Below, piece after piece: positions 33,062 to 43,738 of a DNA stretch of 49,910 nt (the first letter of the stretch is position 1; every line of letters begins with the position of its first letter). A program made the translations under genes and the position numbers. The stretch is from NCBI GenBank assembly GCA_963834265.1, contig CAWIAU010000002.1, positions 141,929-191,838 of the forward strand. Direction: 5' to 3'. The notes under the pieces are model-generated. The model saw nothing but the letters and a program-made list of their open reading frames with translations, did no database searches and was not told the DNA's origin. Source of the stretch: an uncultured bacterium (GTDB lineage Bacteria; Patescibacteriota; Saccharimonadia; Saccharimonadales; 2-12-FULL-41-12).

Positions 33062-33556
33062 TTATTTTATCCGATTGCGTAAGGCTACTTTCTTATTTTT
33101 ACCACGATGAGTGGGTTGAAGGCTATGGCAATTTGGACAAAGTACACGTAAATTTTCCAATCGATTATCCTGTCTTTCCCCGTTAATGTGATCAAGTTCC
33201 AGCGGAATCCGTCCGTCAATTGATTTCTCACACCACCCACATAACTCACATTCAGGAGCTTTGAGACCAGTAGCAAAAAGTTTAATTTTCAACTTATAAC
33301 TTTGCACCCTACTGCCTGTAATCAATAACTCTTCGATAGGAAGAGCAAGTACGACTGGTCTGGTGCTATCTTTGCGCCAACCTTTTCCGGTAAAATGCTC
33401 GGTTGATATGCCTAAATTAATTATTCTATACCTAATCTGAACATAATTCCCGCCTGCGGGTACAAGATTGAGCTTAATCAATACTGCGCGATAACTTTTT
33501 GAGTTTTTTACAGCTTCTTTGAGTTCAGCATCTGTCCATGAACATTTTCGAGGCAT
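33062..33556 (-). CDS. HNH endonuclease (putative free-standing homing endonuclease) inside a tRNA pair
   Basis: CELCGW...LELDHING..DNRLENLRVLCPNCHS (Zn-binding HNH). Confidence 0.92.
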   Translation of the reverse strand: MPRKCSWTDAELKEAVKNSKSYRAVLIKLNLVPAGGNYVQIRYRIINLGISTEHFTGKGWRKDSTRPVVLALPIEELLITGSRVQSYKLKIKLFATGLKAPECELCGWCEKSIDGRIPLELDHINGERQDNRLENLRVLCPNCHSLQPTHRGKNKKVALRNRIK

Positions 33557-34698: not shown

Positions 34699-35310
34699 TT
34701 AATTTCTGGTTGTGGGATTGGCTTTTTTGTACTGATCTATAGCCTTTGAGACTTGTCCGTCGTTCTTTAAGTTTTCCCAGAAAGTAATGTTCTTACGTTC
34801 AATGTACATAACATCTTCAGGTCCATGAAGCTCGTTGCCCAGCTTAGTCAGGCTTACTTCACCACCGGCTAATGGATTACCGGCTTTATCGACATTGCCG
34901 GTTTTGAGATAATATATATCTTCGAGTTTCAACGTATCTTTTGTAATTTCAGTAATCTGCCCGAAGTATACCTGCCCGCCATTCAGAAAAACCCCCTGAT
35001 ACTGGTTTTTTACGATTTGTTTCTCGGTATATTTATCTGCCTCTTCGATTACTTTCAGGCGCTTTTCAATATCTTCGGTCTTTGTTGCCTGATCAGCCCT
35101 ATTTGCTTTGGTGCCAACCATTATCAAACTGGCAGATGCCAGTCCTATAGCGAGTAGCATCAGTATGCTTATGAATAAGGCAAATATTTTACGCTTACCT
35201 GAACTGGGGGATGGTCGTCCTGCCTGGCGTATCTGGTTCGGTAACTGGTTATATACTACCGGTTGCGGAGAGTCGGGCTTGATGGGCTGCTGATTATAAT
35301 TCTGATCCAT
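34699..35310 (-). CDS. Membrane-anchored hypothetical protein
   Basis: TM helix, YQGVFLNGGQVYFGQI...L.DIYYL...LTKLGNELHGPED...FWENLKNDGQV, a pattern I associate with CPR genomes. Confidence 0.8.
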   Translation of the reverse strand: MDQNYNQQPIKPDSPQPVVYNQLPNQIRQAGRPSPSSGKRKIFALFISILMLLAIGLASASLIMVGTKANRADQATKTEDIEKRLKVIEEADKYTEKQIVKNQYQGVFLNGGQVYFGQITEITKDTLKLEDIYYLKTGNVDKAGNPLAGGEVSLTKLGNELHGPEDVMYIERKNITFWENLKNDGQVSKAIDQYKKANPTTRN

Positions 35311-35491
35311 GATAATCTTTCTTGTTTACCATGAAGTATAGGTTATGGTTGTTTATGATCAAAGCAAAATTTTATTACGACCCTGCGGACGGAGACCCGA
35401 ATATGCCAACAGCGGGTTCTATCCAGATCAGTATCATTGTTACCGCGAACACGATTCTGAGGGAGCTGTATTGAATGCTTCGGTACCGAAG

Positions 35492-35680
35492 CTAAGATTT
35501 GTCGCTCAAATACTTACCGGCAACGCTCAATGCGAATGAAGGCAGGATAATAAAAACAGTAAGCGTCAGAAGTTTTGTAAGTATTCCCTCGTCTTCAGAT
35601 CCGGTCAGAACAATCAAAATTCCTAAGATCCCAAATGCGACTGATGCACAGATGAATATTTTTGTAGCTGGTTTTTGCAT
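35492..35680 (-). CDS. Small two-TM membrane protein
   Basis: MQKPATKIFICASVAFGILGILIVL...LLTLTVFIILPSFALSVAGKYL. Confidence 0.7.
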   Translation of the reverse strand: MQKPATKIFICASVAFGILGILIVLTGSEDEGILTKLLTLTVFIILPSFALSVAGKYLSDKS

Positions 35681-35681
35681 A

Positions 35682-35898
35682 TTATTTTTTTTGCTGGTTA
35701 CTCTTATATTCAAGTATATCTCCGGGCTGGCATTCCAGAGCCTTGCAGATAGCCTCCAGACGTTGATAGCCGGACGGCTTTGGCTTTGCCGTTTTTCAGT
35801 ATCGAAAGATTGGCCATTGTTATGCCAACCTTTTCGCTTAGTTCTGTAACGCTCATTTTGCGCCTCGCCAGCATCACATCGATATTAATAATAATCAT
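35682..35898 (-). pseudogene. YozG-like Cro/C1 HTH regulator with a +1 frameshift
   Basis: MIIINIDVMLARRKMSVTELSEKVGITMANLSILKNGKAKAVRLST; removing one T at about 35760 restores LEAICKALECQPGDILEYKSNQQKK*. Confidence 0.88.
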
Positions 35899-35907
35899 AG
35901 CTTACCT

Positions 35908-36366
35908 TTAGACCGTGAGGTCGTTCTCCGATTTTATATCCACGGCATTTTGGACTAATTTCTGTAATACACCCGCAGATGTAGCAATTACGAATGACGC
36001 ACCAACCAGAATTAAGCCAAGCGCAAAAAAGCCCGGAGCATCGTCCTTTTCTGCTGCCTGGAATATGAAGGGCAACAATATGGTATAAATTCCACTAATA
36101 ATCAACGCGCAGTACTTTATTTTCTTCAAGGTATCAACGGTATCAACAGAAAATGCCTGGTTTTTATCAACATTGTTCAGTAACCTTAACGTTTGGTAAA
36201 GCGCATAGAAAAAAGGAATAGCAGCCAAATATGCCCCCGGCAAAAGATGGCCAATTCCGGGCACTCCGTCAAATACAGCCGGAACCGTCAAAACACACAG
36301 CAACAATACAACCCCGCCCATTGCTACAACTGCTAGCCGTAATAATATCGTTGATCCTCGTTTCAT
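35908..36366 (-). CDS. DUF2975 (YoaS-like) membrane protein
   Basis: MKRGSTILLR, AIPFFYALYQ, AFS, DDAPG, AVDIKSENDLTV; known pairing with a YozG-type HTH. Confidence 0.9.
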   Translation of the reverse strand: MKRGSTILLRLAVVAMGGVVLLLCVLTVPAVFDGVPGIGHLLPGAYLAAIPFFYALYQTLRLLNNVDKNQAFSVDTVDTLKKIKYCALIISGIYTILLPFIFQAAEKDDAPGFFALGLILVGASFVIATSAGVLQKLVQNAVDIKSENDLTV

Positions 36367-36462
36367 ATGCTTTCCTTGTTTATTCATGAATAAGAGTATA
36401 GCACACTATTTATCGTAATTCAATATATTTTTGTTGTTACTATTTCATAGATACGCTTAATT

Positions 36463-37068
36463 TTAAGAGAACGAGCCGGTTTTGACATTTCCCGCCCGTT
36501 CATACGAAGCGATGATTACTCCGCTTGGGGAGGTTTTGGACTCAACTAATCTGAAGGCTGCGGGGATGGTACCTTCTGAGAGTAGACGTTTCCCCGCACC
36601 TAGGGTAATTGGGAATATCTTTAGCCATAGTTCATCTACTAGGTCGTTCTTCAACAGTGTTTGTATGAGGTTGCCGCTGCCGTGCACTTGCAGCATCGGT
36701 CCGACTTCTTGCTTCAGCTCATTTAGCTTCTCAATCACATTTTCCTGAATCAATATCGATTTATCCCAGGTTAAATCAACGCCTTTTGATGAAACTACGT
36801 ACTTTTTAGCTTTATCAAACGGGTCGCCTGCCAGTCCTTCTTTGTGCTTCGGCCAATAGGCCGCGAAAATATCATAGGTTTTTCTGCCGAGCAGCAAGTC
36901 AAACGGCATACCCATCTGTTCGCCCATTATATTGCCTGAAAATTTATCAAAATAAGGAACAGTCCACCCACCATAATCAAATCCGCCGGATGTATCTTCC
37001 TCCGGCCCGCCCGGAGCCTGCATTACACCGTCGAGACTGATAAAGCTCAAAACAACAAGTTTCCTCAT
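36463..37068 (-). CDS. Dihydrofolate reductase-like / RibD C-terminal domain protein
   Basis: MRKLVVLSFISLDGVMQAPGGPEED, LLLGRKTY, VHGSGNL, LVDEL.L.IFP..LGAGKRL. Confidence 0.92.
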   Translation of the reverse strand: MRKLVVLSFISLDGVMQAPGGPEEDTSGGFDYGGWTVPYFDKFSGNIMGEQMGMPFDLLLGRKTYDIFAAYWPKHKEGLAGDPFDKAKKYVVSSKGVDLTWDKSILIQENVIEKLNELKQEVGPMLQVHGSGNLIQTLLKNDLVDELWLKIFPITLGAGKRLLSEGTIPAAFRLVESKTSPSGVIIASYERAGNVKTGSFS

Positions 37069-37107
37069 AACAAAATTATAACAAAGTAGATTTCAACAAT
37101 TCTTCGT

Positions 37108-37298
37108 TTCTAGAGGCCGATAATCCCGGCTACACCATGACGGGCATAAACTAATTGCGGTGCGGCTTCAAAGGGAGAAGTATTTCCACAAGCCGGACCT
37201 TCTACAAGTCTATAGGGTGGAGCAGTTTCCTCGCGTTTTTTGGCGCTTACAGTCTCGAGAAACGTATCTACACTTATTCAGGTTGGTCGCGTTTTCAA
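37108..37298 (-). pseudogene. Decayed DUF1801-like gene remnant
   Basis: Fragments LKTRPT*ISVDTFLETVSAKKREE and PVM../GIIGL resemble DUF1801 'LKTKPT..SV..FL' and 'PVMWGPSIIGFG'. Confidence 0.45.
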
Positions 37299-37301
37299 CT
37301 G

Positions 37302-37688
37302 CTACTTCAACTTTAGCAATCCGCGATTTTTAATTATGTTTTTATAATCCCACTGAATATTTATAGCTTTTTTTAAATACCGTTTTAACTGGTCAGGATC
37401 TATTTGGCTTTCGATTGTGTAGATAAGCTCAGCTGCCTTAAAGCTACCGCTTGATATTAGTTCAGGCTCGTCGAAAGACTGGCCGCTCCAGAACATTAAT
37501 CTGACATTACTCTTAAGCTTGCTATATCCCACTATCGGATTGCCGTCTATAAACCAAACCGGATGAGCATGCCAAACCTTACTTTCTGCAAGGGGTAAAT
37601 TATTGCTGATAATTTCGTACAACCGATTACAAATCAATTTGTCTTCTGGCGCCTGTTTATTGTGATAAGATTGAATATCTTTATTCAT
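37302..37688 (-). CDS. DUF1801 domain protein
   Basis: AESKVWHAHPVWFIDGNPIVGYSKLK..VRLMFWSGQSFDEP, QWDYKNI. Confidence 0.88.
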   Translation of the reverse strand: MNKDIQSYHNKQAPEDKLICNRLYEIISNNLPLAESKVWHAHPVWFIDGNPIVGYSKLKSNVRLMFWSGQSFDEPELISSGSFKAAELIYTIESQIDPDQLKRYLKKAINIQWDYKNIIKNRGLLKLK

Positions 37689-37749
37689 GACTTAATCATA
37701 CCAAACTTATATATTCTCGCTTCTAGCCATGCCGCCCCCTATGAAGTGA

Positions 37750-38118
37750 TCATTTCCACTTGACTCCGTTTTCACGGTATTCGCAAGCCCGGAAAAGCAC
37801 TATTTTCTTAATCAATTCCGCTGGCAATGGCTTATCGTAGGCTAACTTTACCGATCCTTTGCCCGTCTCATAGTCCGAGAGCTCATTTTCAAAAGCTTGT
37901 TTGGTGCTTGGTGTAGCAACAAGATTCATATGATTCTTATGGCCGGAAAAGACTACTAAGATCATGCCATTTTTATCGATTGTTGCCGGAGCGCCCCATT
38001 TCAGTGCTTCATTCGTATCGGGTAAAGCTGTCCTGATTATTTTTCGTATTTTTGCCAGTATGGTCTTCTGACCTTCGGGGAAATTATCAATGTATTCGTC
38101 TACTGTCTTTGGCTTCAT
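37750..38118 (-). CDS. DUF1801 / YdhG-like protein
   Basis: KTVDEYI, LKWGAP, KNHM, YETGKGSVKLAYDKPLPAELI. Confidence 0.88.
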   Translation of the reverse strand: MKPKTVDEYIDNFPEGQKTILAKIRKIIRTALPDTNEALKWGAPATIDKNGMILVVFSGHKNHMNLVATPSTKQAFENELSDYETGKGSVKLAYDKPLPAELIKKIVLFRACEYRENGVKWK

Positions 38119-38119
38119 A

Positions 38120-38452
38120 TTATTTACTTTTAACTTTCTTATATGCCATCTCCAGGTGTTCTCGCCACGTTTTACCTTTGTCTTCGGATGCTTCAGCTAT
38201 AGTGTGCAAGCCATTGGCATTGACTGTAAGAGTCATTAGCTGATAAAAATCTTTATCATTACTTGAGCAAACTAATTTTTTCCCGTCAAAAGTTACATTA
38301 AAGATGCTGGATACACCCCGTTGGTCGTAATAAAAAATCTCGTACTTTTCCTGAGGGTCGCTGTAGCCGATTACCCATATATCGTCCGGCTTTTTGTCGG
38401 TTTTCGTATCGCTCAGAACTAAAAAAGAATCGTCCAATGCTATATTTTTCAT
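38120..38452 (-). CDS. Beta-barrel hypothetical protein (DUF1579-like, possibly N-truncated)
   Basis: YYDQRGVS..F, SEDKGKTW..LEM.Y pattern. Confidence 0.55.
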   Translation of the reverse strand: MKNIALDDSFLVLSDTKTDKKPDDIWVIGYSDPQEKYEIFYYDQRGVSSIFNVTFDGKKLVCSSNDKDFYQLMTLTVNANGLHTIAEASEDKGKTWREHLEMAYKKVKSK

Positions 38453-38511
38453 ACAATTATGATATCAACAAAAACCACCGTTAGAATTTTTTGTTCATCT
38501 CATTGGTCTAT

Positions 38512-38856
38512 TTATTTTTTGTCTATTCCCAATTTCTTAGCCACATCGATCAATTCATGCTTAGAAACCAACCCGATAATTCGCTCGACTTCTTTGCCTT
38601 CTAGAAATAGGGGCATGTTCGGAATGCTGCGAACACCATACTCAACGGCAAGCGCATTGTTTTCCTCAGTACCTTCAATATCGACTTTGACTATATCAAT
38701 AATCTCATTGTGTTCTTTTGCAACATCATGTAGGGCAGGTGCCATCGCCAGACAAGGCGCACACCATGCCGCCCAAAAATCGACGAGCACAAGCTTGTTG
38801 CTTTTTAGCACGTATTCTTCAAATTCTTTTTTATTGGTTATGTTATACAGTGCCAT
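38512..38856 (-). CDS. trxA: Thioredoxin
   Basis: VLVDFWAAWCAPC, YGVRSIP, GKEV.R..G. Confidence 0.93.
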   Translation of the reverse strand: MALYNITNKKEFEEYVLKSNKLVLVDFWAAWCAPCLAMAPALHDVAKEHNEIIDIVKVDIEGTEENNALAVEYGVRSIPNMPLFLEGKEVERIIGLVSKHELIDVAKKLGIDKK

Positions 38857-38910
38857 AAGCTTAGTCCTATGATTATAGTATATTAACTTTCACATAGTTT
38901 TCCTAAACTC

Positions 38911-38961
38911 AACCCGGAAAGGGTTATTTGATGGTGAAGCAAATTTATATGAAAGTATAGC
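38911..38961. repeat. Cassette junction site (hairpin + TGGTG...GAAAGT)
   Basis: AACCC-ggaaa-GGGTT, TGGTG at 38932, GAAAGTATAGC at 38951. Confidence 0.5.
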
Positions 38962-38967
38962 TACTAC

Positions 38968-39348
38968 TTAGCCTTCAACAGCCACTTCGAATCCACCGTA
39001 TGCCATCTTTTTCATGTCGTTAGGCATTTCAAAGTCAGTCTGTTCGCTATATGCATCATCCATCTCAGCAATAACTTTTTTATTTACTTCATCGCGGTGC
39101 TCTTTTGATTCAAAAACAATGAATGAAAACCAGACATTTTCCTCATCGTTTGCGCCAGCCATCTCTTTAAAAGCTCTTGATTTTAGGTCACCCATTTCCT
39201 GCTGCTTGAGATCATCACCCTTGCATTCAAAGTACTGAAGTGCACCATGCTTCATCCAGGAATCCCGCCCTTCTTCTGCCATTTTCTGATATTCAGCTTC
39301 TTTGCCTTTAGGAACTACCAGAACAAATCCATCCACGTATTTAGCCAT
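38968..39348 (-). CDS. DUF1428 (YbaA-like) protein
   Basis: YVDGFVLVVP, W..HGALQYFEC.GDD, VWFSFI.FESKEHRD.VN, KKMAYGGF. Confidence 0.92.
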   Translation of the reverse strand: MAKYVDGFVLVVPKGKEAEYQKMAEEGRDSWMKHGALQYFECKGDDLKQQEMGDLKSRAFKEMAGANDEENVWFSFIVFESKEHRDEVNKKVIAEMDDAYSEQTDFEMPNDMKKMAYGGFEVAVEG

Positions 39349-39404
39349 TTTATCTACTCCTCTTTTAAAATTGTATTTTAATAATTTTAGCAGTTACGGT
39401 AAAC

Positions 39405-39467
39405 AAAAAGGACACCTAAGCGTCCTCTCATTAACATTTGGTGCGCTTTATGCTACGAAAGTAAAAC
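39405..39467. repeat. Cassette junction site (terminator + TGGTGCG...GAAAGT)
   Basis: AAAAAGGAC-acctaagc-GTCCT, TGGTGCG at 39439 (7/7 to the tRNA-Gly 3' end), GAAAGTAAAAC at 39457. Confidence 0.55.
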
Positions 39468-39510
39468 GTTACTTCTTAGAGTTTTAATAAACACAGCGAG
39501 ATACTGAAAC

Positions 39511-39930
39511 TCAACGTACAAGTTTAGCGTGGCTGTTATTATAGATTTTTCCTGGTTTTGGTCTGGTAAATTTTAAAGCAGTCCATACATCGTCAATTCG
39601 TATGTTATTACTTTCTACCAGCCCATTGGAGTAACCAATTTTTATGACTGCATCTAACGAAAGGTCAGTATTAAGCTGTCGCGCTTTCGGCCACGACGCC
39701 CAAAGTTTACCGTTTTTTGCCAAACACTCCTTGTAATCAGCAAAGTCTTGCAACATTTCATAACGTCTGACATAGAAAATATGAATAAAGTCATACGCGG
39801 TCTCATCTTTTATGTGAGTATCTATGAGTTTTGCATTTTTTTGAATTGCTTCGGTATAATCTTCGGGGGCATTAATTAGTAAAATTTTAGTGCTGTCATC
39901 AACTTGTATCATTTTTGGTAAACCACTCAT
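39511..39930 (-). CDS. DUF3052-like hypothetical protein
   Basis: INAPE, DFIHIF, GKLWASWPK, TDL, GLVE...IDDVWTALKF. Confidence 0.75.
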   Translation of the reverse strand: MSGLPKMIQVDDSTKILLINAPEDYTEAIQKNAKLIDTHIKDETAYDFIHIFYVRRYEMLQDFADYKECLAKNGKLWASWPKARQLNTDLSLDAVIKIGYSNGLVESNNIRIDDVWTALKFTRPKPGKIYNNSHAKLVR

Positions 39931-39944
39931 AGAATAATCATATC

Positions 39945-40012
39945 AAAAAGAGACGGGTTTAATCGTCTCTATAGGTTTCAGCGTGGTGCCGGATTGTAAG
40001 CGTATTTCTAAC
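39945..40012. repeat. Cassette junction site (terminator + TGGTGC...)
   Basis: AAAAAGAGACGG-gtttaa-TCGTCTCT-like hairpin, TGGTGC at 39984, GTATTTCTAAC at offset 18. Confidence 0.5.
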
Positions 40013-40096
40013 TTTAAATAATAACGAGATTGACACTTACAAATTGGGGAATCTGGTGGAACAATTCAATTTATCCAGTCAATTACTGGAATAGTT

Positions 40097-40873
40097 TTAG
40101 TTTTTGTAAAAGTTATCTAAAACTGGCGCTATAACATCAGCTTTTACGTCGTGAGTTTGCCCATCTAATGAATTAAGTTCTGCGTTCGGCAAGGATACTG
40201 CTAGGTCTTTTGCTGTTTTAGCCATAAAGCTAGAACTATTGGCGCCATAGATAACCAGTGTATCTGTATTAATACTCTGGATATTTAATGTTAGGTACTG
40301 TTCCATAAGTTCAATCGTGTCGTAAGAAAGAGTATGCGCCATACCTGTTAAGCCTTTCCACATTGGCAGACGTTCCATTGCGGCTATTTGCTTATCTGAA
40401 ACACCAACTGTTTTTATAAATAGCGCTACTGCATCTCCGCGTTTGTCTTCCGAAATTAAACCTGCAAGCTTTTTCCTATATGCAATGGATCCCTCTTGCG
40501 CTGATGAATCTGAATTATAAGGTAACTCATACAATGCTAACTTCTTTACTTTTTCGCTCAGTTTTTGAGCGGCCATCAAGGATAGTATGCAGCCTGAAGA
40601 ATGACCATACAGATATGCACTACCACCCAACTCGTCAATTAGTACTTCAATATCATCAACTTCTTTATCGGTGGAGTATGGCAACGTGTCTGTGCTGTCA
40701 CCCTTACCACGACGGTCGTAACAAACAACCGTAAATCTGTTGGATAAAAGTTCACTTATTTTTTTACCTTGACTTCGCCTGTTCAGCGCGCCTAAGACTA
40801 AAATTAAAACAGGCCCTTGGCCTTTTTTGTCATAAGCAATGGTTGTACCATCTTTTGAAATTACTTTAGGCAT
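40097..40873 (-). CDS. Alpha/beta hydrolase
   Basis: SKDGTTIAY, YDRRGKGDS, GHSSG nucleophile, LDGQTH. Confidence 0.92.
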   Translation of the reverse strand: MPKVISKDGTTIAYDKKGQGPVLILVLGALNRRSQGKKISELLSNRFTVVCYDRRGKGDSTDTLPYSTDKEVDDIEVLIDELGGSAYLYGHSSGCILSLMAAQKLSEKVKKLALYELPYNSDSSAQEGSIAYRKKLAGLISEDKRGDAVALFIKTVGVSDKQIAAMERLPMWKGLTGMAHTLSYDTIELMEQYLTLNIQSINTDTLVIYGANSSSFMAKTAKDLAVSLPNAELNSLDGQTHDVKADVIAPVLDNFYKN

Positions 40874-40952
40874 GACAGCATTGTAACAATAAATTAATAT
40901 AATGGCCTTTATATCGATAGTTACCCCTTATAACTTCGTTGCAAGTCTGACT

Positions 40953-41114
40953 TTATTCCGACAATACTTTATCTATATTTCGTAGAGTTTGTTCTGGTCC
41001 GCGTTTAGAGCGTTCGATCATTTCACCACCTGCACGCCAGCCAAACTCAGTAATAATAACTTTTGTTTTGTCATTGCATAAATCTTGAAACTCTACTCGC
41101 TGTTTTTTATTCAT
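40953..41114 (-). pseudogene. SRPBCC/Aha1-like C-terminal remnant (53 aa, not in ORF track)
   Basis: MNKKQRVEFQDLCNDKTKVIITEFGWRAGGEMIERSKRGPEQTLRNIDKVLSE resembles the final strands and helix of SRPBCC domains. Confidence 0.55.
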
Positions 41115-41284
41115 TGGTGTTTCTCTTTTGCCATATTGCTATCATAACAGTTAGTGACTTAATCTATTTGAGCCAGGTTAAAACCCCGCTACTCACGTGC
41201 ATATAACACTGTGAAAGTTATTAATAGTCTGCCTTTTGTGTCTCGTCTCACATGCCCAAGGATTAGAGACGTTAAAACCCAGAA

Positions 41285-41330
41285 TTAACAGATAAAAAAG
41301 TGCCTTTTCGGGCTCAAAGTTGCGAATGGT
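41285..41330. repeat. 46-bp imperfect direct repeat of the tRNA-Gly ACCA end plus terminator (partner 41766-41811)
   Basis: TTAACAGATAAAAA-N11-GGGCTCAAAGTTGC-N-AATGGT in both copies; followed by GAAAGT at 41345. Confidence 0.85.
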
Positions 41331-41412
41331 ATGCTGTTAACATTGAAAGTGCAGCGATGCTCATTAGGAGGGCCACAAAAAATTACTTTAAATCTATTTA
41401 CTATTATTGCTG

Positions 41413-41718
41413 TTATTCAGCAAACTGCAGCTTGTGTTCGTTTTTAACCGCTTTTTGCTGGTGAGCCCTGGCTCCAACTGGCTCGGAAAATCTAGTATTG
41501 AGCCCGTCTAGAATGTGCTTGTCATTACCCTTTAGCAATGTACCGTCATCGAGCACGACGACTGGTATCTTGTTTTGTCCGCTAACCTGGATTAGCTCAT
41601 CTCGCTCTTTTGGTACAGCTGAAACTGGAATGGCTAAGAATTGTAGGCCAAGTTCCGTCATGCGCTGTCTGATCTTATGTGAGTGAGGACACCACTCCGC
41701 CTGGTAAACTTTTATCAT
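41413..41718 (-). CDS. Monothiol glutaredoxin / GST-N-like protein
   Basis: VYQAEWCPHSHKIRQRMTELG, SGQNKIPVVV..DG; track start 41757. Confidence 0.85.
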   Translation of the reverse strand: MIKVYQAEWCPHSHKIRQRMTELGLQFLAIPVSAVPKERDELIQVSGQNKIPVVVLDDGTLLKGNDKHILDGLNTRFSEPVGARAHQQKAVKNEHKLQFAE

Positions 41719-41807
41719 CGTTGCTTTCAGGTTTATTTTACTTATTTGATTATACACCCTCCAAGTTAACAGATAAAAAGAGCGCTATTAGGGCTCAAAG
41801 TTGCTAA

Positions 41808-41884
41808 TGGTGCGGGTGAAGAGACTCTAACTCTCGACCTCTTCCTTGGCAAGGAAGCGCTCTAAACAACTGAGCTACACCCGC
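41808..41884 (-). tRNA. tRNA-Gly(GCC)
   Basis: GCGGGTG...CTTCC-TTGCCAA-GGAAG...GAGAG-TTAGAGT-CTCTT...CGCACCA. Confidence 0.93.
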
Positions 41885-41971: not shown

Positions 41972-42150
41972 TGGTGGCTCCTCCCAGACAGCGGACTTCG
42001 TCCTTTTCCACTTAATCTTTCTCGAAGCAAGCTTCTGCGAGAGATTTCGCTTCACCGAACTGATGGTTCACTGCGTTCACGCATCCAGTTCAAGCTTGGA
42101 ACGACCGCAATAATCCATTGCAGCCCACTCAAAAGGTGGGCAACACTGGA
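41972..42150. mobile_element. tRNA-Phe 3'-associated palindromic mini-element
   Basis: 18-bp exact copy of the tRNA 3' end (41972-41989 = 42151-42168), several hairpins, inverted T-arm TCCAGTTCAAGCTTGGA at 42084-42100. Confidence 0.6.
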
Positions 42151-42226
42151 TGGTGGCTCCTCCCAGACTCGAACTGGGGACACAAGGCTCTTCAAGCCTC
42201 TGCTCTACCAACTGAGCTAAAGAGCC
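42151..42226 (-). tRNA. tRNA-Phe(GAA)
   Basis: GGCTCTT...GAGGC-TTGAAGA-GCCTT...AGTTCGAGTCT...GCCACCA. Confidence 0.96.
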
Positions 42227-42358
42227 ACAATATATAGGTGGCGTAGATTATGCGAATTGTTAATGAGCCTTGTGTCCCGGTGGGACAATTGATTATTTCT
42301 GGGCTGAAGCCCGGCATCTTCAAGCCTCTGCGTTTGGCAACTGAGCTAAAGAGCCACA
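42227..42358. mobile_element. tRNA-Phe 5'-associated palindromic mini-element
   Basis: Degenerate copy of the tRNA 5' half (42317-42355), GGGCTGAAGCCC and TGTCCCGGTGGGACA hairpins, inverted 14-nt tRNA fragment at 42265-42278. Confidence 0.6.
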
Positions 42359-42405
42359 TTAACTCTGTTATTCTAGTGTAATTCAACCTTTTATTCAATA
42401 TCAGA

Positions 42406-43371: not shown

Positions 43372-43547
43372 AGGCTTGTAAATTATATCAGGTGAACGGG
43401 TCGGGGTATTCCCCGCCAACCTCCGGCTGGCCCGAAACTTCATTTTTGAAAACAAGTTTTCAAAAGAAGATTTCCTTGCGAACTGCCACAGGTAGTTCTC
43501 ACCTCTCGGTGTAAACGAGATGCTCTAGCCAACTGAGCTAATCACCC
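43372..43547. mobile_element. tRNA-Val 5'-associated palindromic mini-element
   Basis: 46-nt exact copy of the tRNA 5' half (43502-43547), GAACTGCCACAGGTAGTTC and TTTTGAAAACAAGTTTTCAAAA hairpins, inverted GGGTCGGGG fragment. Confidence 0.65.
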
Positions 43548-43664
43548 GATTAATAACAGATTAGACTATACCAGATATAACTACTTTATTAAACAGACTT
43601 TGTTCAACAAACTCTCTGCTCTATGCGATTTACTAAAGCTAATTTCTAAAAAATGTCAAATCTA

Positions 43665-43738
43665 TGGTGCGGTATATGATCTGAACTTCAATTCTCCTGG
43701 TGTAAACGAGAGACTACCGTCAACCGAGCTAATCACTC
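43665..43738 (-). pseudogene. Chimeric pseudo-tRNA (Val-like 5' half, Leu-like 3' end)
   Basis: GGTGTAAACGAGA...CAACCGAGCTAATCAC matches tRNA-Val; TGGTGCGG plus flank matches the tRNA-Leu(GAG) locus; stems broken. Confidence 0.75.

Follow-up and report, generated by a model that had tools for sequence, protein, structure and literature searches.

The section at 38.9–41.9 kb of the 49,910-nucleotide window, which is the whole stretch of DNA analyzed in the present study, was probably built by serial integration of elements encoding large serine recombinases (LSRs) at the CCA end of a tRNA-Gly gene, followed by deletion that left one or two cargo genes per unit, and we put the probability of this reading at about 78%. 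The evidence for it consists of homology breakpoints at ACCA, tRNA trailers displaced from the tRNA, arms that match LSR tails, and a series of homologous loci that runs from full to absent LSR genes. The host genome is Saccharibacteria-like and about 1.08 Mb in size. The tRNA-Gly(GCC) gene (41808..41884, minus strand; anticodon gcc by ARAGORN, Rfam 70 bits) is the anchor of the array and the left half of attB, with the crossover within its terminal ..GCACCA. As the first-pass annotation had noticed, the small genes downstream of the tRNA are co-oriented with one another, all 14 from 41757 down to 34699 (53–258 aa) lying on the same strand, and its TGGT positions (41327, 39984, 39439 and 38932) and the intervals between the noted sites (481, 132, 1211, 545 and 507 bp) were reproduced. 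With an intact tRNA at one end, gene content beside the tRNA-Gly that varies among relatives, and three serially displaced trailers, the locus has the features of a tRNA-anchored island formed by tandem integration.

The motif ACTTTC-N14/15-ACCA has three matches in the window where 0.11 would be expected, and none of 100 shuffles reached three. Genome-wide, ACTTTC-N13-16-ACCA has 14 matches, three of which fall within this 2.4 kb on a single strand. In a trailer test, the 40 nt following each of 8,978 genomic ACCA sites were compared with 115 metagenome tRNA-Gly trailers, a library that contains non-Saccharibacteria. The real tRNA-Gly trailer ranked second, and the sites at 41330, 39987 and 39442 ranked third, fifth and seventh of the 8,978, with scores of 27, 21 and 19 against a 99.9th percentile of 14; scores of 19–21 are not unique to tRNA-Gly flanks because an unrelated tRNA-Arg trailer of the same genome scores 20–22. 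Relatives place the breakpoints at the same tetranucleotide, since identity to them is 69–85% downstream of ACCA versus 44–54% upstream (null mean 46%, 99.9th percentile 63%). The proposal that recombination at the CCA end of tRNA-Gly produced these junctions, with older material pushed off the tRNA by serial insertion, is thus supported both by homology that begins at ACCA and by the displaced trailers. The core common to junction and target ranges from ACCA to CGCACCA, 4–7 nt at all four junctions, as had been anticipated from the very short overlap that serine recombinases need, and the far junction of a 9.3-kb LSR element in the homologous locus L105 has just the 7-nt CGCACCA in common with its tRNA.

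Next to the tRNA lies the terminator-like trailer A' (41766..41807, minus strand), the plus strand of which reads ..LTDKKSAIRAQSC-stop-WCG-stop; together, the tRNA and this trailer share 92% nucleotide identity with locus L097. Trailer A with a further relic (41241..41326, minus strand), the third-ranked site, is displaced from the tRNA; over 40 nt, it shares 83–85% identity with L114, L097 and the tRNA trailer of this same genome, as opposed to 44–48% upstream of ACCA, and its region matches L114 at 81.5% over 92 nt. Judged from their translations, trailer A' is the C-terminal coding end of a family-2 LSR in a decayed state, and trailer A a similarly decayed LSR end. The two form a 46-nt direct repeat (trailer A' versus 41285–41330) of 83% identity, a resemblance not expected from simple attP × attB integration. 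Junction 1, composed of arm 1 (ACTTTC-N14) and ACCA (41327..41371, minus strand; motif and translation), is attP-like in that its plus strand runs on from trailer A as ..RAQSCEWYAVNIES... The fifth-ranked trailer B (39931..39983, minus strand), a displaced tRNA-Gly flank with a terminator hairpin, agrees at 24 of 26 nt with the tRNA-Gly trailer of the relative G023, and its flank is 69–74% identical downstream versus 49–54% upstream of ACCA. Trailer C, an older tRNA-Gly flank that includes the promoter region of the DUF1428 gene (39349..39438, minus strand; rank 7), is 72% identical to the trailer of L106 versus 44% upstream, where L106 is the closest locus in a comparison that includes no genome of the same genus and has a flank of only 2 kb with a different gene set. 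The ACCA-hairpin-promoter module before DUF1428 is kept in L030, L153 and L237, joined to unrelated arms, four in all.

The remaining sites of the first-pass annotation fared less well. Junction 4 (arm 4, ACTTTC-N15, plus ACCA; 38932..38967, minus strand) retains the motif and has an arm 62% identical to arm 3, a borderline value just below the 99.9th percentile of 63%, but its trailer is unmatched (rank 1277). The supposed far-edge copy at 35346 failed on both counts, ranking 1277 with an arm at the null level. The degenerate copy claimed at 41195, about 45 nt past the 92-nt stretch homologous to L114 (41241–41330), reads ACGT rather than TGGT, for which reason it lies outside the scored ACCA set, and nothing marking a junction was found there. 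The pattern therefore holds for 38.9–41.9 kb and is unsupported below 38.9 kb. Nine more small genes scanned against Pfam (Trx, unk110, two DUF1801, RibD_C, DUF2975, HTH_26, mem73 and p203) occupy 34699..38856 on the minus strand, and the trailer ranking detected no junction scars at 34.7–38.9 kb, the site 3' of Trx at 38507 being weak (rank 14, score 13). RibD_C, DUF1801 and DUF2975 are found downstream of tRNA-Gly in relatives too.

The suggestion that the arms are what remains of the tail of a recombinase ORF running through the att site is supported. Junction 2, comprising TGGT and arm 2 (39984..40091, plus strand), contains a 36-codon match to the tail of a family-1 LSR, with 43% identity to residues 496–530 of P0007 (BLASTP, E 7e-8) and 49% to P0022 (E 2e-8), and this segment is the genome-wide best match for three long LSR tails; at the nucleotide level, arm 2 shares 66–71% identity with arms of L125 and L135. 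Junction 3, TGGT with arm 3 (WCALCYESKT..; 39439..39504, plus strand), resembles a family-2 tail, sharing 7 of 10 residues with that of P0092; matches to tails of this family are short, with an E value of 0.002 against a small database. Over 40 nt, arm 3 also shares 90% nucleotide identity with an L097 arm that has different cargo and a different downstream flank, and it is 60% identical to arm 1. The segments at 39984–40091 (43–49% identity) and 39439 thus have the element-side arm expected from a recombinase's own attP, and the arms of the window are relics of an LSR tail encoded across attP.

Homologous loci contain the recombinases themselves. An LSR gene converges on the tRNA-Gly 3' end at 15 of the 120 loci taken from metagenomes and 11 of the 119 taken from genomes, among them L105 and L075, whose proteins carry the Resolvase, Recombinase and Zn_ribbon_recom domains of Pfam. 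Its reading frame crosses the att site and ends within the tRNA as WCG-stop; the LSRs in the database take two forms, one ending in this way and one with a longer tail. Among 239 loci, the ORF in the WCG-stop frame through the tRNA end reaches 300 aa or more in 9, measures 100–299 aa in 13 and stays below 100 aa in 217, and the LSRs are present as full elements of 7–9 kb, as 5'-truncated remnants, or are absent. The L116 remnant corresponds to residues 345–501 of the L075 LSR with 87% identity, and that of L097 is 91–93% identical to full LSRs. Serial arm-type junctions likewise recur elsewhere, at least one in 26 and at least two in 6 of the 239 loci.

Taken together, these observations suggest the following history. 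LSR-bearing elements would have entered successively at the CCA end of tRNA-Gly(GCC), making 38.9–41.9 kb an accretion zone, by a crossover inside ..GCACCA. The LSR gene of each element would converge on the tRNA, with its frame spanning attP, so that after integration the frame would end in ..W-C-G-stop on a stop codon supplied within the tRNA, while the last ~13–35 LSR codons would stay behind as the arm, at the element's far end. Every new insertion would displace the prior tRNA trailer inwards, and an internal junction should therefore consist of a newer arm, (GC)ACCA and an older trailer. Later deletions would have stripped out the LSR genes together with the bulk of the cargo, leaving in each unit one or two expressed genes with their own terminator. 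The order of these events and catalysis by LSRs belong to this reconstruction, and we infer rather than see the deletion of the LSR genes in this genome because the window retains, at 33–43 kb, no LSR and no stretch of one exceeding about 14 codons.

The cargo would accordingly comprise, from the newest unit inwards, glutaredoxin, a truncated SRPBCC gene with a hydrolase, and a DUF3052-like gene, all before an older DUF1428 neighbor. The identities given in the first-pass annotation are clear for glutaredoxin (41413..41757; PF00462, E 7e-12), the alpha/beta hydrolase (40097..40873; PF00561, E 6e-13) and DUF1428 (38968..39348; Pfam E 2e-26), whereas they are weak for the DUF3052-like unk139 (39511..39930; E 0.066) and the SRPBCC remnant orf53 (40953..41114; E 0.033), all on the minus strand. 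The latter is a C-terminal fragment that covers positions 80–124 of the 125 in AHSA1 and has in-frame stops immediately upstream; it is a truncated gene and marks a deletion scar. Homologs of DUF1428 (75–89%) lie downstream of tRNA-Gly in L030, L058, L117, L153, L205, L237 and L245, in L058 as the first gene past the tRNA; DUF1428 and RibD_C are recurrent tRNA-Gly neighbors in relatives rather than recent cassettes. No homologs of glutaredoxin, the hydrolase or unk139 were found in the 259 fetched loci (20 + 120 + 119).

The first-pass annotation had favored single-gene circles inserted as in an integron, with no integrase of their own. Such circles were probably not the mechanism, given the full, truncated and absent LSRs, the truncation of orf53, a unit of mixed families, and the recurrence of DUF1428 and RibD_C; its alternative, in which larger elements arrived in succession and left the genes as relics of their cargo, agrees better with the 7–9 kb LSR elements in homologous loci. 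A version in which recombinase-less cassettes of trailer, gene and arm circulate as small circles, with an LSR acting in trans to insert and excise them at the CCA end, as in an integron or in ccr-less SCC elements, appears unlikely, even though co-oriented one-gene units of 0.4–1.4 kb recur in the window, L060, L116 and L075, two full LSRs are encoded elsewhere in the genome, and one arm is joined to different cargo here and in L097. The internal junctions also look attP-like (arm plus trailer), that at 41327 reading as a continuous LSR 3' end, and the similarity of A' to the displaced A means that the tRNA junction may still be a target. However, no identical trailer-gene-arm block was found twice, the glutaredoxin, hydrolase and unk139 genes have no counterpart in the fetched loci, and DUF1428 retains its upstream module while the arms change. 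Truncated LSRs and a truncated cargo gene show decay, one unit has a trailer of family 2 but an arm of family 1 and is therefore a deletion composite, and the resident LSRs, located at other tRNAs, share about 20–26% identity with the tRNA-Gly families. It is quite unlikely that the stack is a working serine-recombinase cassette platform with functional attP-like internal junctions and, as the resemblance of A' to A would allow, an attB-like tRNA junction; if it were, a visiting or resident LSR could excise and reinsert units or blocks without a directionality factor, and the array would be a tRNA-anchored serine-recombinase counterpart of the integron.

Import or remodeling of the array by homologous recombination after DNA uptake, with the tRNA and trailers as anchors and no site-specific event in this lineage, is very unlikely: the repeat around glutaredoxin offers such homology and the genes adjoining the tRNA and trailer differ from those of L097, but the origin of the arm-ACCA-trailer junctions and of the LSR-tail relics would stay unexplained, the site-specific events merely being moved to the donor. 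That the junctions arose by chance or are ordinary intergenic features, a terminator plus a promoter with no common history, is extremely improbable. ACCA by itself is not enriched in the spacers, a scan found 8 terminators against 7.3 expected, and the sites at 41195 and 35346 are unsupported, but the motif excess, the top trailer ranks, the homology break at ACCA and the 36-codon LSR-tail match already contradict it.

Serial LSR integration followed by decay has parallels in known systems. In the description of Prochlorococcus tycheposons, new elements enter the same tRNA, older ones are pushed into the island, and remnants, fragmented integrases, partial tRNAs and cargo genes are left behind, with LSRs used by a minority (27 of 937) (10.1101/2020.12.28.424599). 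Repeated integration and decay at one tRNA are common to both, whereas the scar described there is a partial tRNA of ~40 nt and only 4–7 nt are common to the tRNA here; the present locus further differs in using LSRs throughout, with a frame that spans attP, in units cut to one or two genes, and in its small Saccharibacteria-like host. The integron, with its IntI integrase, attI site and attC cassettes, is alike in that small, unrelated genes are stacked in a single direction and orientation, the newest next to the insertion point. Its attC sites, however, are imperfect inverted repeats with R''/R' cores that follow each cassette, and one Pc promoter is common to all, whereas here every gene comes with a terminator, and presumably a promoter, of its own among LSR att relics. 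On sequence grounds, the junctions would be explained as LSR arm plus tRNA trailer instead of attC. No integron-type tyrosine integrase (PF00589) was detected on the contig of the window or among the scanned window ORFs, the PF00589 matches of the genome being on contig C1 only, at 227 kb and, broken, at 487 kb. The Ccr enzymes of staphylococcal SCC elements are LSRs, and a short direct repeat lies at each SCC junction. SCC composite islands are described as mosaics of several elements, inserted at the 3' end of a single conserved gene, in which the ccr-less psi-SCC units have no recombinase of their own (10.1101/336396, PMC13739063), features that recur here, but SCC membership is defined by Ccr-mediated integration at rlmH in staphylococci, and with tRNA-Gly as target, another recombinase family and another host, the likeness is one of analogy only. 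Islander-type tRNA/tmRNA islands, as reported, similarly have an intact tRNA and a displaced fragment marking their two ends, but involve tyrosine integrases and longer displaced fragments than here (PMC4383910). In the integration-dependent switch of mycobacteriophage BPs, integration is reported to shorten a C-terminus by 33 residues because attP lies within a coding gene (PMC4557955), comparable to the ~13–35 codons lost here, although that gene encodes the repressor and a tyrosine recombinase carries out the integration, while here the gene would be that of the LSR itself. The array at tRNA-Gly(GCC) would thus represent a known route of island building, in an unusually clean and compact form, in a bacterium with a small genome.

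In the window (C2:141929-191838 of the source genome), the tRNA-Gly(gcc) gene (41808-41884, minus strand) is followed by 14 genes for proteins of 53-258 aa, which extend on one shared strand from 41757 down to 34699. From the tRNA side, the gene order with Pfam assignments is glutaredoxin, a 53-aa ORF (orf53), alpha/beta hydrolase, a 139-aa protein (unk139), DUF1428, thioredoxin, a 110-aa protein, two DUF1801 proteins, RibD_C, DUF2975, HTH_26, a 73-aa membrane protein, and a 203-aa protein. With relaxed Pfam thresholds, unk139 gave a weak DUF3052 match and orf53, immediately upstream of which lie in-frame stop codons, matched AHSA1/SRPBCC over the last 45 positions only. The gene calls and interval sizes of the first-pass annotation proved correct when re-checked in the window.

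The junctions at 41327, 39439, and 38932 contain, in the tRNA sense, the motif ACTTTC-N14/15-ACCA, and these three occurrences in the window compare with 0.11 expected, a number that 0 of 100 shuffles reached. The whole 1.08 Mb genome has 14 copies of ACTTTC-N13-16-ACCA, three of them within these 2.4 kb on one strand. In addition, a 46-nt direct repeat with 83% identity (41285-41330 and 41766-41811), consisting of ACCA and the tRNA trailer, i.e., the flank after the ACCA of tRNA-Gly, brackets the glutaredoxin gene. ACCA alone was not clearly enriched in the spacers, a promoter and terminator scan found no excess, and Rfam returned only tRNAs, both for the window at the gathering threshold and for 38.8-42.45 kb at an E-value threshold. 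The sites were ruled out as tRNA pseudogenes or tRNA-like 3' UTR elements because ARAGORN and Rfam are empty there and because the arms, the element-side att relics that precede ACCA, match the tails of large serine recombinases (LSRs); they were also ruled out as promoters because the motif sits between stop codon and terminator.

Trailers were compared with those of other genomes by scanning metagenome contigs with the 20-nt 3' end of the window tRNA-Gly, which gave at least 120 loci. The 40 nt after ACCA from these loci comprised 120 unique trailers, and removal of five that run straight into another tRNA left a taxonomically mixed library of 115, against which each genomic ACCA (8,978 sites, both strands) was scored by the 40 nt that follow it, the 99.9th percentile being 14. 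The true tRNA-Gly trailer scored 28 (rank 2), followed by site 41330 of junction 41327 (27, rank 3), site 39987 of junction 39984 (21, rank 5), site 39442 of junction 39439 (19, rank 7), and site 38507, 3' of the thioredoxin gene (13, rank 14), while sites 38935 and 35349 both scored 5 (rank 1277); these values should be read with the caveats that an unrelated tRNA-Arg trailer scores 20-22 in the same test and that the top score genome-wide belongs to a contig start (C1:1-215), after a tRNA-like 3' end at C1:175. ARAGORN makes no call for that end, and the C1:1-215 trailer resembles trailers behind tRNA-Gly-type ends in other contigs.

Identity on the two sides of ACCA was also compared, with a null for random 40-mers of 46% on average and 63% at the 99.9th percentile. 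Junction 41327 showed 44-48% upstream and 83-85% downstream against its own tRNA trailer and loci L114 and L097, junction 39984 showed 49-54% and 69-74% against the trailer of genome G023 and locus L135, and junction 39439 showed 44% and 72% against L106, the closest relative among the loci listed (Band7, 96% aa identity). By this sequence comparison, the homology breakpoints sit at ACCA for all three junctions. The stack of units with recurring junctions described in the first-pass annotation is, judging from the motif excess, the trailer ranks, and the ACCA breakpoints, largely real for 38.9-41.9 kb, but its proposed far edge was not supported, given the rank of site 35349. A block of ACCA, hairpin, promoter, and DUF1428 is kept in the window, L030, L153, and L237 with an unrelated arm in each, and in L058 no other gene separates DUF1428 from the tRNA. 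At the tRNA-Gly locus of the related genera G001 and G021, the small co-oriented genes are different ones and nearly all of the island genes of the window are absent, the exceptions in G001 being only DUF2975, HTH_26, and a weak DUF1801 match. An HNH endonuclease gene between tRNA-Leu(taa) and tRNA-Cys (33062-33556) is 60% conserved at the equivalent position in G021.

The database relatives of the LSRs form two groups, ~498-aa forms that end in WCG and longer forms that run past WC. Family 1 (P0007, which is a cluster of 184 members, P0013, and P0022) has a tail of ~33 residues after WC, and family 2 (P0092) has a short one. The plus-strand stretch at 39984-40091 is an open frame of 36 residues whose translation matches the P0007 tail at 43% identity (E 7e-8) and P0022 at 49%; it is the genome-wide best tblastn match for all three family-1 tails, and at the DNA level it resembles arms in L125 and L135 (66-71% identity). 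The start peptide of arm 39439 matches the P0092 tail at 7/10 residues, and over 40 nt the arm agrees at 90% with an arm of L097, which is linked to other cargo, a DAO oxidoreductase, and to another downstream flank. Arms with ACTTTC-N14-ACCA also occur in L192, L220, and L262, and arms 41327 and 38932 are 60-62% alike to arm 39439, which is borderline. The displaced trailer A (41241-41326) and trailer A' beside the tRNA (41766-41807) can be read as a decayed family-2 C terminus, and the frame is unbroken across junction 41327, as in an attP. The arms of the window thus read as LSR tails, the family-2 matches being short. No LSR fragment was found in the window, where tblastn of LSRs gave noise, save one 14-residue tail match.

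LSR genes convergent on the tRNA-Gly end were found in 15 of the 120 metagenome loci listed and in 11/119 genome loci, and the named genome records are mostly Candidatus Saccharibacteria or Saccharimonadales. In L105, a 9.3 kb element is bounded by the tRNA and by a displaced site that has only CGCACCA in common with the tRNA, and the tRNA-proximal gene of the element encodes a 593-aa LSR (Resolvase, Recombinase, Zn_ribbon_recom). This element (L105:2812-12089) also carries a diversity-generating-retroelement-like pair (reverse transcriptase and bAvd), a pilin-like protein, Replic_Relax, and a PLD nuclease. On the strand opposite to the tRNA, the frame TGG TGC GGG TGA (W-C-G-stop) leads from the tRNA end into an ORF; of the 239 loci listed, 9 have it with 300 aa or more, 13 with 100-299 aa, and 217 with <100 aa. 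Pfam identifies the L075 ORF as an LSR; L116 and L133 have ORFs of 171 aa that correspond to residues 345-501 of this LSR with 87-89% identity and are therefore 5'-truncated remnants, and a 116-aa remnant in L097 is 91-93% identical to the C terminus of full LSRs (534-544 aa). By these ORF lengths and remnants, the recombinase at one and the same locus can be complete, truncated, or missing. The related-locus search with the L075 LSR alone found no relatives in viral contigs, and an alignment of eight sequences retrieved relatives of 23-27% only.

The best explanation is that LSR elements would have integrated serially at the CCA end of tRNA-Gly and then undergone reductive decay. That the units are cassettes rather than decayed elements seems unlikely, even though arm-type junction arrays recur (within flanks of up to ~13 kb, 26 of the 239 loci listed have at least one junction and 6 have at least two) and units of 0.4-1.4 kb exist in L060, L116, and L075, because orf53 is a gene fragment, truncated LSRs are found in other loci, and in the orf53-hydrolase unit the trailer is of family 2 but the arm of family 1, so that this unit must be a deletion composite. 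Moreover, the window, L030, and L245 have DUF1428 and RibD_C in the same order behind tRNA-Gly, no whole unit was seen twice as a block among the loci listed, and glutaredoxin, hydrolase, and unk139 have no homolog among the 259 loci listed (20 + 120 + 119). Simple attP x attB recombination, on the other hand, does not account for why trailers A and A' are so similar (83%), and a cassette-like or homologous-recombination route therefore keeps some probability. The integron-like mechanism suggested at first is improbable in view of the signs of decay, and the stack differs from an integron because its contig has no tyrosine integrase.

Other tRNA-linked features were observed nearby. The 3' end of tRNA-Phe (42151-42226) recurs as an exact 18-nt copy (41972-41989) 179 nt downstream of this tRNA, and a copy of the 5' half (42318-42361; 24 nt at 96%, ~40 nt by eye) lies ~130 nt upstream, so partial tRNA copies flank the intact tRNA. 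Upstream of tRNA-Val, 43372-43736 (minus) holds a degenerate tRNA-Val-like copy (about 43665-43736, minus, ending ..CCGCACCA), a copy of the tRNA-Val 5' half (43501-43547, minus), and a hairpin-rich stretch of ~110 nt, the core of which is common to modules after tRNA-Gly in other genomes and to C1:1-178 of the source genome. At many Saccharibacteria loci (L040:9288-9399 and 10 others, alignment A2), a module of 110-190 nt behind the tRNA-Gly terminator closes with the tRNA 3' 20-mer, repeated exactly; such a copy is present in 16 of the 239 loci listed. RNAalifold predicts a three-way junction for this module, with double compensatory changes in 7/19 pairs, and it has no Rfam match; the module may be an RNA gene, a recombination site that folds, or the remnant of an old att site. 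Beyond the window, at tRNA-Glu(ctc), lies a 7.3 kb element (C1:483606-490986) that appears to be intact. The ORF of its 553-aa LSR overlaps the last 38 nt of the tRNA, whose 3' end recurs as a degenerate repeat of ~25 nt at 490962-490986, and the element contains a tyrosine recombinase that is broken. More serine recombinase genes lie near tRNA-Lys, tRNA-Asn, and tRNA-Gln (C3:29039-30760, C1:571239-571679, and C2:102688-103102, the last one broken).

The Ccr enzymes of SCC are LSRs. SCC composite islands are the closest described case having recombinase-less units (10.1101/336396, PMC13739063), and the closest concept is that of tRNA-anchored islands made by successive integrations and decay, reported for tycheposons (10.1101/2020.12.28.424599). 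In BPs, attP is reported to lie in the repressor gene, so that integration shortens the product (PMC4557955), whereas here attP would lie in the recombinase's own gene. No account of such tRNA-Gly LSR arrays in Saccharibacteria was found in the literature searched. The two LSR families would gain a defined natural target, the CCA end of tRNA-Gly, and, because the LSR gene spans its own attachment site, integration would alter the C terminus of the enzyme, which could serve as a built-in switch. Since the scars are short (4-7 nt), such islands are probably missed by tools that seek partial tRNA repeats. The island shows how accessory genes, such as those for redox proteins and hydrolases, are acquired and retained in Saccharibacteria-type genomes, which are very small and host-dependent: serine-recombinase elements would land at a single tRNA end and later be pared to useful cargo.
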